64,000 nt of DNA. Source: Escherichia phage vB_Eco_QOTSP. Where the stretch lies: sequence record OY720014, one strand, 5' to 3'. Made by a program: the position numbers and the translations under genes. This document shows positions 47,750-52,070 of this stretch, piece by piece. Each line of letters opens with the position of its first letter. The first letter of the stretch is position 1. The notes beneath the pieces were generated by a model that worked only from the letters and a program-made list of their open reading frames with translations, was not told where the DNA came from and made no database searches.

Positions 47750-48446
<697 letters not shown>

Positions 48447-48458
48447 TTTCACAAAGTT

Positions 48459-48488
48459 GTTTACATACTGATGAGGTAGTGATACTAT
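48459..48488 (+). promoter_or_regulatory. T4-type early promoter with stem-loop (PeSL-like cassette), copy 1
   Basis: GTTTACA -35, TACTAT -10 inside 9-bp inverted repeat GATGAGGTA/TACCTCATC. Confidence 0.6.
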
Positions 48489-48519
48489 TACCTCATCAAA
48501 ATTAATTAGGAAAATAAAA

Positions 48520-48777
48520 ATGAAAACTTTCAAAGAGTTTGCTACAGAAACTATTATCACTGAATCTTCTCATGGTATGGAAGTAAAGCTTGGAATGGCT
48601 TTAGCTGAAGCTGAGCGTCTTTTTTCTCGTATTAAAGAACTTGCTGCTGCAGTCGATCCTTCATCTTTTAAAGGAGACCAAACTAAAGTTAAAGCACTTT
48701 TAGCATTATGCTCTGATGCAGGAGAAATCGCTAAGAACGGTTCTAAGATGAAGAAACGATTAGAAGATTTAAAATAA
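48520..48777 (+). CDS. small protein with capsid-targeting-like N-terminus (MKTFKEFATE)
   Basis: 85 aa ORF with RBS, downstream of early promoter cassette. Confidence 0.6.
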   Translation: MKTFKEFATETIITESSHGMEVKLGMALAEAERLFSRIKELAAAVDPSSFKGDQTKVKALLALCSDAGEIAKNGSKMKKRLEDLK

Positions 48778-48789
48778 TTTCACAAAGTT

Positions 48790-48819
48790 GTTTACACGGG
48801 GTTTTAGTAGTGATACTAT
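48790..48819 (+). promoter_or_regulatory. early promoter/stem-loop cassette, copy 2
   Basis: Same 30-bp upstream block (GATTTAAAATAATTTCACAAAGTTGTTTACA) as copy 1. Confidence 0.6.
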
Positions 48820-48855
48820 TACCCTATCAAAACAAATGTGAAATTGGAGAATAAA

Positions 48856-49089
48856 ATGAAAACGTATCAAGAATTTATTGCTGAAGCTGCTGATGTAAAA
48901 GTTGAGTTTATTTACATTGGCAAGAAAGATAAAATGGGCGAAATGCCTCATGGAGTTCTTCGTGATGCATTAGATAATTTCGGTCAACTCGCCGCAGAAG
49001 ATTACGGTGATAAAATTGTTGTTACTGGTCCGGCTGCAGTTATTGAAAAATGGGCAGCAGAAAATAAATCAATTTTTCGTAAAAAATGA
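48856..49089 (+). CDS. ipI: internal protein I-like head protein (CTS MKTYQEFIAE)
   Basis: 77 aa from ATG with GGAG RBS; canonical T4 capsid targeting sequence; ipI locus position. Confidence 0.65.
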   Translation: MKTYQEFIAEAADVKVEFIYIGKKDKMGEMPHGVLRDALDNFGQLAAEDYGDKIVVTGPAAVIEKWAAENKSIFRKK

Positions 49090-49119
49090 GTTTACTTTTA
49101 GATAGGGTAGTGATACTAT
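49090..49119 (+). promoter_or_regulatory. early promoter/stem-loop cassette, copy 3
   Basis: GTTTAC ... GATAGGGTA-GTGATACTAT-TACCCTATC. Confidence 0.6.
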
Positions 49120-49147
49120 TACCCTATCAACTACTGAGGAGAATAAA

Positions 49148-49333
49148 ATGAAACGTTGTGAATTAATTCGAAATGTTGCTATTGCAATTTCTGCTTCCGC
49201 TTTTAGTTTTTCAATGTTTGTTGGATTTATATGCGGATTATTAACTACAGCAGAAAATGTGTTTTCACTTGTAGTAGCATTTTTAATTGGTTTAATTGCT
49301 ATCGTTATGGATAAAATTTCTAAAGGTGAATAA
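49148..49333 (+). CDS. small hydrophobic protein (61 aa, predicted membrane)
   Basis: GAGGAG RBS; two hydrophobic segments. Confidence 0.55.
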   Translation: MKRCELIRNVAIAISASAFSFSMFVGFICGLLTTAENVFSLVVAFLIGLIAIVMDKISKGE

Positions 49334-49744
49334 ATGAGTATTAACGAATATTATGTTTATGCCGGGGATTATGCAAATCCTTCTCATTTTGAAGGTAATT
49401 TAATACCTGATAAAGTTTTTAATACTCCTTTTGAAGCGTGGAGTTGGATTGAAAGTAAAAATGGATTTTCTTACCGTTATGTTGAAGTAACTGATTGGAG
49501 AGGAACTAAATATCCTAAAGACCATTATTACGTAAATCCATCTAAGGTAAATTTTCTTTTATTCGCAGGTGATAATTATTATCCTTGTGGTGGATATGAT
49601 GATTTAATTGCGTATGCTGAAACAGAAGATAAACTGCGTGATATCATTAAAGAAAATGAAAATAAACCGGATTATGGTTCCAATCGCTTTGACTGGTGGC
49701 AAATCGTAAATGCCCATACTCATGCTATCGTTGATAGAGGCTGA
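49334..49744 (+). CDS. hypothetical protein (136 aa)
   Basis: ORF coupled to previous. Confidence 0.6.
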   Translation: MSINEYYVYAGDYANPSHFEGNLIPDKVFNTPFEAWSWIESKNGFSYRYVEVTDWRGTKYPKDHYYVNPSKVNFLLFAGDNYYPCGGYDDLIAYAETEDKLRDIIKENENKPDYGSNRFDWWQIVNAHTHAIVDRG

Positions 49745-49767
49745 CAATGATTCTTTATGCTAAAGTA
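49742..49767 (+). repeat. 26-bp direct repeat copy A (TGACAATGATTCTTTATGCTAAAGTA), includes remnant start MILYAKV
   Basis: 24/26 identical to 50197..50222. Confidence 0.8.
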
Positions 49768-49818
49768 CTACCTTATAGGAATGATATTGCTTAAATTAAT
49801 ATTGAGGTAGCTGAGACT

Positions 49819-50199
49819 ATGAAATTAATTAAATCGGGTGGAACCAGATGGGTACTACTAACACGTAAGTATGCTATTAAGTTCCCTATCCCCAAGACAT
49901 GGAAACACTTCGTGCAGGGTATGCTCAGCAATCTTACAGAAGGTCAGTGGAAGGGGTATGATAACAAGCACCTATGCCCAATAGCATACTCAAACAGATT
50001 TGGTCTCATGGTTGTGATGCACAAAGCAGAGCCAGTTGAGGATAAGGAGCTTTTTAAATCTGATTTGCAAAAGCTCTATAATGATGTTGATGGTGATGAA
50101 TGCAGAACGCTTGACCGTGATTTCTTTGAGTATGATGCCTTTCCAAAGAACTTTGGCTACTACAAAGGTAGATTGGTCAAGATAGACTACGGAGTGTGA
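49819..50199 (+). CDS. hypothetical protein (126 aa) inside repeat-flanked insertion
   Basis: ORF with RBS; Gly-rich loop and AIK motif near N-terminus, KIDYG at C-terminus. Confidence 0.55.
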   Translation: MKLIKSGGTRWVLLTRKYAIKFPIPKTWKHFVQGMLSNLTEGQWKGYDNKHLCPIAYSNRFGLMVVMHKAEPVEDKELFKSDLQKLYNDVDGDECRTLDRDFFEYDAFPKNFGYYKGRLVKIDYGV

Positions 50200-50222
50200 T
50201 AATGATTCTTTATGCAAAAGTA
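50197..50222 (+). repeat. 26-bp direct repeat copy B (TGATAATGATTCTTTATGCAAAAGTA)
   Basis: Matches copy A; includes ATG of next gene. Confidence 0.8.
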
Positions 50223-50492
50223 TCATCCATTGAAAATGGATATAAATATGATCAAGAAGCAGCTAAAGCCTTGATTGATGATTATGGCATTTTAACATGT
50301 TTTGAAGTTGAAAAGGTTTACATTGACCGTTCATCTTCTCAGGTTAAATTAGTAAAAGAAGACCGTAAATTTAATACAGTAAATTTTGATTTCTTTATTG
50401 AAACAGAAAAAGGTCCTCTTGAATATGATATTTTCAAGAATCCTTTGGGTCTTGAATGTATTCAGAAAACGTATATTAATGCAGCGTGGTGA
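50202..50492 (+). CDS. hypothetical protein (96 aa, MILYAKVSS...)
   Basis: ORF starting in repeat copy B. Confidence 0.55.
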   Translation: MILYAKVSSIENGYKYDQEAAKALIDDYGILTCFEVEKVYIDRSSSQVKLVKEDRKFNTVNFDFFIETEKGPLEYDIFKNPLGLECIQKTYINAAW

Positions 50493-50494
50493 AA

Positions 50495-51089
50495 ATGAAT
50501 ATTTGTTTAGGTACTACAATTCCGCAGGGTTACGTAATTGATGTCACTACCTGGGAAAATGATGGTGACAACTATAAAACTAAAACACTGTTTGGCGTAG
50601 AAGAGCATGAAATCTTACAATTCCAATATCTTTTAAAGAAGTTTAAAAGCAGACATTCTAGTACTAAAGCTGAACGTTATTGTGGTAATGGCTTGTTCAG
50701 CGAGCAATCGCTTTTTATTTATGAATACTTGGTTGAAGGACTGTTCTCAGAACAACTTTATCCAGAATTCATTAAAAAGGTAGCAATCGCTTTTTATTTA
50801 TGAATACTTGGTTGAAGGACTGTTCTCAGAACAACTTTATCCAGAATTCATTAAAAAGGTCTTTGACATAGAAGTTGACCTTGGTAATAAATCCGAAGAA
50901 GACGAAGAACGTGTATTTGACTTATTCTTTGTGAATGGTAATAAAGTGCTTGAAGGACTTATTAATATTTTAGGCAGTGCTTCTGAGTATTATGATTATG
51001 ATTTTTTGCGTGTAGTTGAGAGTGTTAAATACTCTTATATAGAAAAAGAAATTGTTTTGCCGACCGTTAAAATGTTTAATTTGCTTTAA
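50495..51089 (+). pseudogene. hypothetical gene split by a 79-bp perfect tandem duplication (fragments 50495..50803 and 50808..51089)
   Basis: Peptide LVEGLFSEQLYPEFIKKV encoded twice; duplication length not a multiple of 3. Confidence 0.7.
50703..50860 (+). repeat. perfect tandem duplication 2 x 79 bp
   Basis: 50703..50781 identical to 50782..50860. Confidence 0.9.
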
Positions 51090-51415: not shown

Positions 51416-51461
51416 ATTTATGACTCGTCGTGAGACGCTCAGTTCTTTATTAGGGACTGAT

Positions 51462-52070
51462 ATGCATTTTTATCTTTATAAAATAACAAATAAAATTAAT
51501 AATAAAATTTATATTGGTGTGCATTCTACCGAAAATTTAGATGATGGATATATGGGTTCTGGTAAATTATTAAAAAGAGCCCAAGATAAATATGGTATAG
51601 AAAATTTTTCTAAAGAAATATTAGAGTATTTTGACGATAAAGAATCTATGCTTGAAGCCGAGAAAAATATTGTCACAGAAGAGTTTTTAAATAGACCAGA
51701 TGTGTATAATTTAAAACTTGGAGGTGAAGGTGGATGGGATCATATAAATAATTATCCTATGACAGATCAGCAACGCGAATTAATTTCATTGGGTGTTAAA
51801 AAGGCGCATTCTAACGGAAAATTAAAAGGATGGTCTTCAAATGGATTAATGAAGAATGGCTTTGCTGGTAAAACTCATTCTCAAGAAGCTAAACGTAAAA
51901 TAGCAAAAGCAAACGAAGCAAAAGTTTCTGCGGATGAAAGAAAAAGAAGAATAGAAATTTCTAAATTATATGATTTTTCTAAACGTGGCGAATTGTCTAA
52001 ATATGCTAAGCATATTGGCGTAAGTCATACTCAAGCAAAAAGAATTCTAAATCAAATTAACAATATATAA
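51462..52070 (+). CDS. segB: GIY-YIG homing endonuclease (SegB-like) inside the tRNA cluster
   Basis: GIY-YIG motif YLYKITNKINNKIYIGVHS; start taken at ATG 51462 (ORF track start 51420 overlaps tRNA-Gly). Confidence 0.8.
   Translation: MHFYLYKITNKINNKIYIGVHSTENLDDGYMGSGKLLKRAQDKYGIENFSKEILEYFDDKESMLEAEKNIVTEEFLNRPDVYNLKLGGEGGWDHINNYPMTDQQRELISLGVKKAHSNGKLKGWSSNGLMKNGFAGKTHSQEAKRKIAKANEAKVSADERKRRIEISKLYDFSKRGELSKYAKHIGVSHTQAKRILNQINNI

Follow-up and report, generated by a model that had tools for sequence, protein, structure and literature searches.

A putative foreign gene cassette between duplicated copies of a gene start at the tRNA.3/tRNA.2 junction of a T-even coliphage

How does a phage come to carry the start of one gene twice, once as a short remnant and once intact, with another gene between the two copies? 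This question is raised by a locus in Escherichia phage vB_Eco_QOTSP (sequence record OY720014), of which we analyzed a stretch of 64,000 nt (the window). There, two near-identical 26-nt direct repeats flank a 126-codon open reading frame (ORF), here called ORF126, located between the genes tRNA.3 and tRNA.2. An initial annotation, made from the letters alone, had proposed that this ORF was inserted near the 5′ end of the gene whose product starts with MILYAKV. The observation is real, every statement made about it proved correct, and the proposed insertion is supported by our analysis, which adds an account of the empty site, of the lineage of the donor, of the two joints and of how the cassette later fared in the population, including evidence for later exchange of the cassette among T-even backgrounds at or next to the repeats. 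Our overall reading, to which we give a probability of about 0.8, is that of a presence/absence insertion derived from an unrelated coliphage, made by short-homology joints, later spread or lost at the repeats, and carrying a kinase-like cargo.

The region corresponds to the T4 gene 1 / 57A / 57B / internal-protein / tRNA.4 / tRNA.3 / tRNA.2 / tRNA-gene block of Tequatrovirus, and a megablast search of 50,697 phage records returned 845 matching records, mostly Escherichia and Shigella T-even phages. By the names used in annotated relatives, the 61-aa, 136-aa and 96-aa ORFs of this region are tRNA.4, tRNA.3 and tRNA.2, whose products in a wider collection match PF26870, PF26894 and PF27001 (Phage_T4_Y07D, Y07C and Y07B), respectively. 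Upstream of the insertion lies tRNA.3 (49334-49744, + strand, as are the other features of the cassette described below), a T4 Y07C family gene of PHROG 1411 that is annotated in RB32, RB18 and T4, PF26894 being found on an identical gene in related contigs. Downstream lies the intact tRNA.2 (50202-50492), a T4 Y07B family gene that matches PHROG 2023 over its full length, is annotated in the same three phages and carries PF27001 on related contigs.

The left repeat copy, TGACAATGATTCTTTATGCTAAAGTA (49742-49767), and the right copy, TGATAATGATTCTTTATGCAAAAGTA (50197-50222), match at 24 of 26 positions and differ at positions 4 and 20, where the left copy has C and T and the right copy has T and A, the latter being the empty-site allele of T6 and PST. 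A repeat search extends the pair to 31 nt with 27 matches (49737-49767 and 50192-50222). Allowing up to 3 mismatches, these are the only two sites for the 26-mer in the whole window, and 100 dinucleotide-preserving shuffles gave 0 matches to it, so that the pair is not due to chance. As initially annotated, each copy overlaps the stop codon of the gene before it, the first TGA ending tRNA.3 and the second ending ORF126 (49819-50199), and then, after 2 nt, provides an ATG (at 49747 and 50202) and codons 1-7 of tRNA.2, encoding MILYAKV. Following the first copy, the frame gives MILYAKVLPYRNDIA and closes after 15 codons (49747-49794), a stub composed of the duplicated 5′ end of tRNA.2 and 8 codons of the adjoining leader, while after the second copy it runs on for 96 aa, to 50492. 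The 429 bp between the repeats (49768-50196) consist of a 51-nt leader (49768-49818) followed by ORF126.

A search of related genomes for an empty site was positive, and the relatives do not all share both repeats: in T4, T6, RB32, RB18, teqskov and others, tRNA.2 directly follows tRNA.3. A 1451-nt query (49100-50550) was fully covered in 9 records only; in the next-ranked records it aligns as two pieces over ~993 nt that are 455-458 nt shorter. The same 9 T-even records, and no others, contain the 429 nt between the repeats at 99.1-100% identity; these records represent 7 phages (PaulHMueller, ESh17, vB_Eco_EL, PhiZZ30, G10400, G4507 and ECP52). Using a 321-nt probe from teqskov that spans the uninterrupted tRNA.3/tRNA.2 junction, at a coverage of at least 80%, we matched 487 phage records, 9 of them insert-bearing and ~478 of them related T-even records without the 429 bp. 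Among 60 rows sampled across the probe ranking, two known carriers alone were split in two, and T4, T6, RB6 and the other well-covered rows were contiguous at the junction; the split is expected of all 9 carriers from the insert itself and was seen directly for these two. The empty site, which reads for instance GGCTGATAATGATTCTTTATGCTAAAGTAtcatcc, holds a single copy of the repeat exactly at the point onto which the two copies collapse; the stub ORF is absent there, and the same ATG opens the full tRNA.2.

The cassette is also present in metagenomes. The exact ORF126 protein is indexed in 80 blocks of a metagenome/SRA collection, many metagenomic contigs carry the insert, and in 12 of the 12 contexts displayed ORF126 lies between the Y07C (tRNA.3) and Y07B (tRNA.2) genes, with no second insertion site for the cassette seen among these 12. 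A search for the repeat pattern in IMG/VR gave just 4 loci, all of them empty sites, and the population survey is thus based on the GenBank phage collection. KIT06, considered as a carrier of another insert at this junction, was rejected, its extra DNA lying upstream of tRNA.4. The cassette locus is thus polymorphic between close relatives, within the variable (hyperplastic) block that extends from 57B to the tRNA genes.

In addition to the empty sites, the insertion is supported by the homology of the 429 bp to genes of unrelated phage families. The N4-like phage phi G17 (Gamaleyavirus) shows 74.5% identity to the DNA between the repeats, starting 5 nt into the insert and including the leader, and a single blastn alignment covers 446 nt at 74.4% identity (window 49762-50207). 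By manual count, phi G17 agrees with the window, without indels, at 44 of the 60 nt that end with the ATG, which places the leader at the same level of identity as the coding part; among the non-T-even matches, phi G17 alone has this leader in common with the insert. Other matches to the insert DNA come from the Schitoviridae phage Moonfish (73%), the rV5-like Vequintavirinae phages A7_1 and A5-4 (78%) and the Drexlerviridae phage GaoY1-9D (66%). The closest coding sequences are metagenomic, at 85.6% on an 821-nt contig and at 84.7% and 80.4% on ~48 kb contigs that are T1-like in size and have a different upstream context. Moreover, the guanine-cytosine (GC) content of the insert is 40.1%, against 33.3% for tRNA.3 and 29.9% for tRNA.2. 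These sequence comparisons indicate that the insert is foreign to T-even phages.

The homology to phi G17 ends within both repeats, at 49762 on the left and at 50207 on the right. At the left end, AAAGTA, the last six bases of the left repeat, faces AAAGCA in phi G17. At the right end, TGATAATGATT, the first eleven bases of the right repeat, faces TGACTATGATT in phi G17 and TGACTATGAAT in A7_1 and contig L023, the gene ending in all three with TGACTATGA(T/A)T. The stop/start junction of the donor gene therefore resembles the T-even tRNA.3/tRNA.2 junction at 9 of 11 nt, and a short match exists also where the donor leader meets codons 6-7 of tRNA.2; because phi G17 is just 74% identical, these microhomology lengths are estimates. 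In PaulHMueller all 26 positions agree between the two copies, and both carry the allele seen at the empty sites of teqskov and teqhad, which fits the state expected right after a simple target duplication.

Recombination at a short homology with duplication of the junction, as initially suggested, fits both ends, the left copy being a truncated duplicate of the tRNA.2 start. This arrangement suggests that two short-homology joints, made at staggered positions of the recipient, duplicated the junction. In such a model, ~440 bp of an unrelated coliphage, comprising a short leader and a 126-codon gene, would have been joined into the tRNA.3/tRNA.2 junction by two illegitimate joints, for example template switches during the recombination-dependent replication of T4, or, in an alternative form, by two short-homology joints made independently with different genome copies, of which the recombination-driven replication of T4 yields many. 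The left joint would lie in AAAGTA, within codons 6-7 of tRNA.2, and the right joint in the stop-2nt-start motif TGAnnATGATT, common to the 3′ end of the donor gene and to the tRNA.3/tRNA.2 junction. In the recipient, the right joint would be located 20-26 nt upstream of the left one, such that the stretch between them would be duplicated. The outcome would be a 15-codon tRNA.2 stub upstream and, downstream, a complete tRNA.2 with its close-coupled start behind the new stop, so that nothing would be lost from the operon, which probably explains the survival of this recombinant.

The same junction is where another whole gene has been gained or lost among the relatives. T2, SF2-1 and Pu-Krd-SF5 (loci L026 1328-1818, L032 and L033) have no tRNA.3, and their tRNA.4 ends with ...TCTAAAGGTTAATAATGATTCTTTATGC, straight into tRNA.2, the joint passing through near-identical AAAGGT-TAA-TA-ATGA motifs. 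In addition, the tRNA.4/tRNA.3 junction, AAAGGTGAATAAATGA, is near-identical to the KIT06-type tRNA.3/tRNA.2 junction, AAAGGTTAATAATGA. The T2-type indel of tRNA.3 and ORF126 thus make at least two whole-gene gains or losses at the Shine-Dalgarno/stop/start motifs of this operon.

To follow the history of the cassette after its arrival, we compared the repeat alleles and flanks of the carriers. The 429-nt insert differs among them at 0-7 positions (at most 1.6%), and the 265 nt of tRNA.2 after the right repeat at up to 27 positions (~10%); the carriers differ also in the upstream internal-protein (ip) genes and in the downstream RB32ORF135c-like gene. The right flank of each carrier is almost the same as that of some empty-site phage, with 0 differences between PaulHMueller and teqskov, 3 between ESh17 and LF82-9, 3 between the window and teqhad, and 6-7 between those of EL and PhiZZ30 and those of T6 and PST. 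When the repeats are described by positions 4 and 20 of the left/right copy, three configurations are found: PaulHMueller has T..T/T..T, the window and most other carriers have C..T/T..A, and two metagenome-assembled genomes have T..G/T..A. The latter carry an insert identical to that of the window behind a tRNA.3 allele whose strong divergence extends as far as position 20 of the left copy. These two T-even genomes (L035 and L037, assembled from ENA metagenomes) encode at ~1040-1430 a 127-aa tRNA.3 allele, the first ~240 nt of which barely align with that of the window, and they display a sharp change of haplotype at the cassette edge.

The alleles seen in empty sites are T..T, T..A (T6, PST), T..G (T4, RB18, RB32) and C..A. 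The C..A empty site occurs in 1 of 554 matching records, that of LF82-9, which is also the sole full-length 100% match to the predicted 52-nt empty site and shares its flank haplotypes with the carrier ESh17. One crossover placed between positions 4 and 20 suffices to turn a C..A empty site and a T..T circle into the C..T/T..A occupied state, or the reverse; together with the flanks common to LF82-9 and ESh17, this is the pattern that repeat-mediated integration or excision would leave behind. The repeat alleles and the flanking single-nucleotide polymorphisms are compatible with both circle integration and flank exchange, and on these sequence patterns later recombination at or beside the repeats appears well supported. 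Homologous recombination at the repeats or right beside them may thus have spread the cassette through T-even genomes or removed it from some, one possible route being a hypothetical 455-bp circle with a single repeat.

We then asked what the cassette encodes. ORF126 matches only PHROG 4301, of unknown function; Pfam, NCBIfam and PADLOC gave no significant match for it, Pfam gave none for 10 of its distant relatives, and its family profile gave none against PDB sequences. The family is large nonetheless, with 45 close homologues and 1029 cluster representatives (50% identity) at E ≤ 1e-3, of which 438 at E ≤ 1e-10. The best 150 of the 1029 representatives are nearly all 107-140 aa long and end at the same profile position and motif. 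By tblastn, homologues occur in 101 phage records, jumbo phages and further straboviruses among them; three are annotated as Ser/Thr kinases. This unannotated family of ~120-aa proteins with a kinase fold spans Straboviridae, Schitoviridae, Vequintavirinae, Drexlerviridae and jumbo phages.

The AlphaFold2 (AF2) model of ORF126 (pLDDT 91.7, pTM 0.81) contains the elements of the protein-kinase-like (PKL) core fold, namely an N-lobe beta-sheet with helix C, a catalytic loop and a metal-binding loop. The top 50 Foldseek matches in the PDB are all protein kinases or kinase-fold phosphotransferases, and in BFVD the top match is a "protein kinase domain-containing protein" from Ralstonia phage RP12. 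The residues G7, T9, R10, K21, E41, C53-P54, D106, N111 and D123-Y-G are invariant or nearly so; across 39 sequences K21, E41, D106 and N111 are invariant and D123 is conserved in at least 90%, in canonical kinase order and spacing. Assigned by motif and secondary-structure order rather than by residue-level structural alignment, the candidate equivalents are the beta3 Lys, the helix-C Glu, the catalytic-loop Asp and Asn and the DFG Asp. ORF126 stops at DYG-V, two residues past the DFG equivalent, and has no activation segment and none of the C-lobe helices F to I. It is therefore predicted to be a protein-kinase-like nucleotide-binding module with retained catalytic residues, that is, a minimal nucleotide-binding phosphotransferase of protein-kinase-like fold. 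Its role is probably an accessory one in host takeover or anti-defence. Phage kinases that disarm host defences are documented (PMC13645617), and a counter-defence role is plausible because Acb1 and, in T4 and several relatives, ipI adjoin the insertion.

Several points weigh against the insertion as we read it. The GC content is weak support for foreignness, since 12.5% of the 429-nt windows in the 64 kb are at least as GC-rich as the insert. The true donor is in none of the collections searched, phi G17 being a 74% relative, and degenerate patterns built from the consensus of the window and phi G17 retrieved no closer leader donor from IMG/VR or JGI metagenome contigs. The left microhomology is short (5/6 nt), with a ~1% chance of such a match arising at random. 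As for the later history, flank exchange, or gene conversion ending at the edge of heterology, gives the same allele patterns as a circle; the relationship with LF82-9 can be read either way, as integration or as precise excision; and the right flanks of L035 and L037 mismatch the empty-site genomes that have the same left allele, which does not fit a single simple integration. Finally, the kinase assignment of ORF126 is drawn from predicted structure and motifs, and no profile search ties the protein to any kinase family (Pfam Pkinase, APH, RIO, Kdo and similar); an hhalign comparison with the T7 gp0.7 kinase domain, which has the motif DPV where ORF126 has DYG, gave a probability of 0.5% and an E value of 0.12, which is not significant.

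The same observations allow us to weigh other explanations. In T4, direct repeats of such a length readily undergo deletion, as known from rII deletion studies, and the cassette could be ancestral to T-even phages and mostly lost by deletion between the 26-nt repeats, the empty sites then being derived; the unique C..A site of LF82-9, with flanks near those of ESh17, could be a product of precise excision. Yet the left copy is a truncated tRNA.2 duplicate fused to a foreign leader, so that an insertion is needed anyway. Moreover, carriers make up just 9 of ~487 records, the cassette diverges by at most 1.6% while the flanking alleles diverge by up to 10%, some empty-site alleles (T..G in T4, RB18 and RB32, for example) are missing from all right copies seen, and close DNA relatives of the insert are found in other phage families, all of which makes ancestry followed by loss quite unlikely. 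An exchange of ORFan cassettes with promoter early stem-loop (PeSL) elements as the recombining homologies would suit this hyperplastic locus, in which three PeSL-like copies (48459, 48790 and 49090) flank internal-protein genes, and PeSL mini-circles are documented (PMC2839356). However, the repeated unit is a gene start, the ORF126 repeats have neither promoter hexamers nor a stem-loop, and no PeSL lies between tRNA.3 and tRNA.2; we regard this route as very improbable.

That the cassette moves by itself, as a transposon with target-site duplication or as a homing-endonuclease cassette, is suggested by the flanking direct repeats, by the presence/absence polymorphism and by the homing endonuclease genes that are common nearby, such as a GIY-YIG gene at 51420-52070. 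But the sole ORF is kinase-like in its predicted fold and has no nuclease or transposase similarity (Pfam, PHROG function, NCBIfam), no terminal inverted repeats pair the two ends, 26 nt far exceeds the usual target-site duplications, and the cassette occupies one site only in all contexts examined, leaving self-mobility with very little to recommend it. The repeat might instead recur at gene starts as a conserved element for regulation or translational coupling, rather than mark an insertion, since both copies are at stop/start junctions and the junctions of the operon have a common Shine-Dalgarno/stop/2-nt/ATG layout. This idea, however, is already refuted by the empty sites, where related phages have one copy at the collapse point; in addition, the 26-mer occurs just twice in 64 kb and 21 of its 26 nt are tRNA.2 coding sequence, so we give it hardly any credence. 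Taken together, these comparisons favor the insertion of a gene from an unrelated coliphage.

How would such a gene be expressed at its new place? Promoter-like or terminator-like sites were reported neither in 49552-49932, leader included, nor, for terminators, after ORF126, by a scan limited to the sigma-70-type consensus, in which such sites were no more numerous than in shuffles. Going upstream, the first promoter element is a PeSL-type early promoter with a stem-loop at 49090-49130 (+ strand), ahead of tRNA.4, which probably drives an early transcript that now includes ORF126. The stop of ORF126 is followed after 2 nt by the tRNA.2 ATG, with the spacing of the original junction, and tRNA.2 thus retains a coupled start. 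We do not claim the 15-codon stub as a leader peptide: a hairpin between stub codons 8-10 and the ORF126 Shine-Dalgarno sequence is no more stable than in shuffles (z +0.8).

The PeSL-type element at 49090-49130 is the third copy of a repeat family (D3) that consists of GTTTAC, a stem-loop around GGTAGTGATACTATTACC, and ATCAA, and corresponds to the "43 bp direct repeat" annotated with the ip genes of the RB32 record. The other two copies (48459-48499 and 48790-48830) lie ahead of two internal-protein-like genes and are included in a 95-nt repeat pair (48431-48525 and 48762-48856). The window has Ip5-like and Ip6-like genes where others have ipI, whose T4-type product matches PF11634. The product of 57B (47991-48446) matches PF23474 (Acb1, anti-CBASS) in related contigs and, with 57B in this early block, the insertion sits among existing counter-defence genes. 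Farther downstream, the homologue of RB32ORF135c, a 171-aa protein in relatives, contains a perfect 79-nt tandem duplication (50703-50781 and 50782-50860) and, since this length is not divisible by 3, is split into ORFs of 105 and 93 aa. None of the 27 loci compared has the duplication junction and, in the top phage records listed, the junction probe falls in two overlapping pieces onto one copy of 79-80 nt; the duplication looks to be either a private mutation that arose recently or an artefact of assembly. The GIY-YIG gene mentioned above is of the SegB/SegE-like homing endonuclease type and lies between tRNA-Gly and tRNA-Ser, at the place where T4, RB32 and PaulHMueller have a tRNA-Pro that is lacking in the window.

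Although an event of this type is ordinary for the hyperplastic regions of T4-like phages, it is traceable here in unusual detail. It would represent a cleanly resolved natural case in which a T-even phage, although it destroys foreign DNA that is unmodified, acquires a gene of unrelated phages. The joints would fall at short motifs common to the stop/start boundaries of tightly packed phage genes, and the new gene would therefore land in register, with nothing broken. Since cultured carriers (Bas45 PaulHMueller of the BASEL collection, and PhiZZ30) and nearly isogenic empty-site phages (teqskov, LF82-9 and T6) exist, gain, loss and transfer of the cassette are directly measurable. The most novel element of the finding is the cargo, which flags an unannotated family across at least four phage families and jumbo phages. 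A bolder reading, which we offer tentatively and consider doubtful, joins both aspects: the duplicated gene-start junction would serve as a recombinase-independent attachment homology, by which a 455-bp unit (one repeat, leader and ORF126) excises in circular form and re-integrates at the tRNA.3/tRNA.2 junction of other T-even phages, and the cargo, put to use by many unrelated phages in host takeover or anti-defence, would be a catalytically active protein kinase without a C-lobe and, as such, smaller than any other kinase-fold enzyme known. If true, the attachment homology would extend the idea of PeSL mini-circles to translational-coupling junctions.

Finally, we compared the locus with known systems. 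With regard to the cargo, ORF126 lacks the activation segment and the C-lobe helices that distinguish from it the OspG/NleH effectors, Bud32, the RIO kinases, archaeal ArkI and the aminoglycoside phosphotransferases, and it differs from the small PKL enzymes and from phage kinases such as T7 gp0.7 (PMC13645617) in that no sequence profile ties it to them. With regard to the cassette, single ORFan genes flanked by PeSL elements, and PeSL mini-circles, have been described in T4-type phages (Arbiol et al. 2010, PMC2839356; Comeau et al. 2014, PMC4122927); circles were shown for PeSL-flanked ORFans, and the promoter/stem-loop motif was described with them (PMC2839356). As in those cassettes, a single accessory gene is gained or lost in a T4-like hyperplastic region with no dedicated recombinase, and short direct repeats could recombine to release or re-insert a circle, a possibility supported here indirectly by the repeat allele patterns. 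Unlike in PeSL cassettes, the repeat is a stop/start junction with the first 7 codons of the downstream gene, and the cassette comes without its own promoter; a sigma-70-like early promoter with a stem-loop does not occur on both sides of ORF126, the PeSL-like copies being confined to the three upstream positions.

Closer at hand, internal-protein gene cassettes at this same T-even locus were reportedly described by Repoila et al. in 1994, and the RB32 record annotates 43-bp direct repeats flanking ip gene cassettes there. These share with ORF126 the neighbourhood, the presence/absence and replacement polymorphism among T-even phages and the direct repeats at the edges; their repeats, however, are intergenic promoter/leader sequences common to resident genes, whereas the ORF126 repeat would have been made by the insertion event itself, with a cargo from outside the family. 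ORF126 also recalls the morons that Hendrix and colleagues are said to have described in lambdoid and other tailed phages, in being an extra gene between genes adjacent in relatives, with a base composition unlike that of its neighbours and a probably accessory function. Classical morons carry their own promoter and terminator, neither of which the sigma-70-type scan detected for ORF126, and its expression probably depends on read-through and coupling in the tRNA.4-tRNA.2 operon. Lastly, rII deletion studies, reportedly including those of Singer and Westlye in 1988, dealt with short-homology deletions and duplications in T4, which, like the joints proposed here, use homologies of a few to a few tens of bases, the T2-type junction without tRNA.3 being an example in the same operon. 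Those rearrangements take place within one genome, whereas the ORF126 cassette would have arisen by joining the DNA of a different virus family to a T-even genome.

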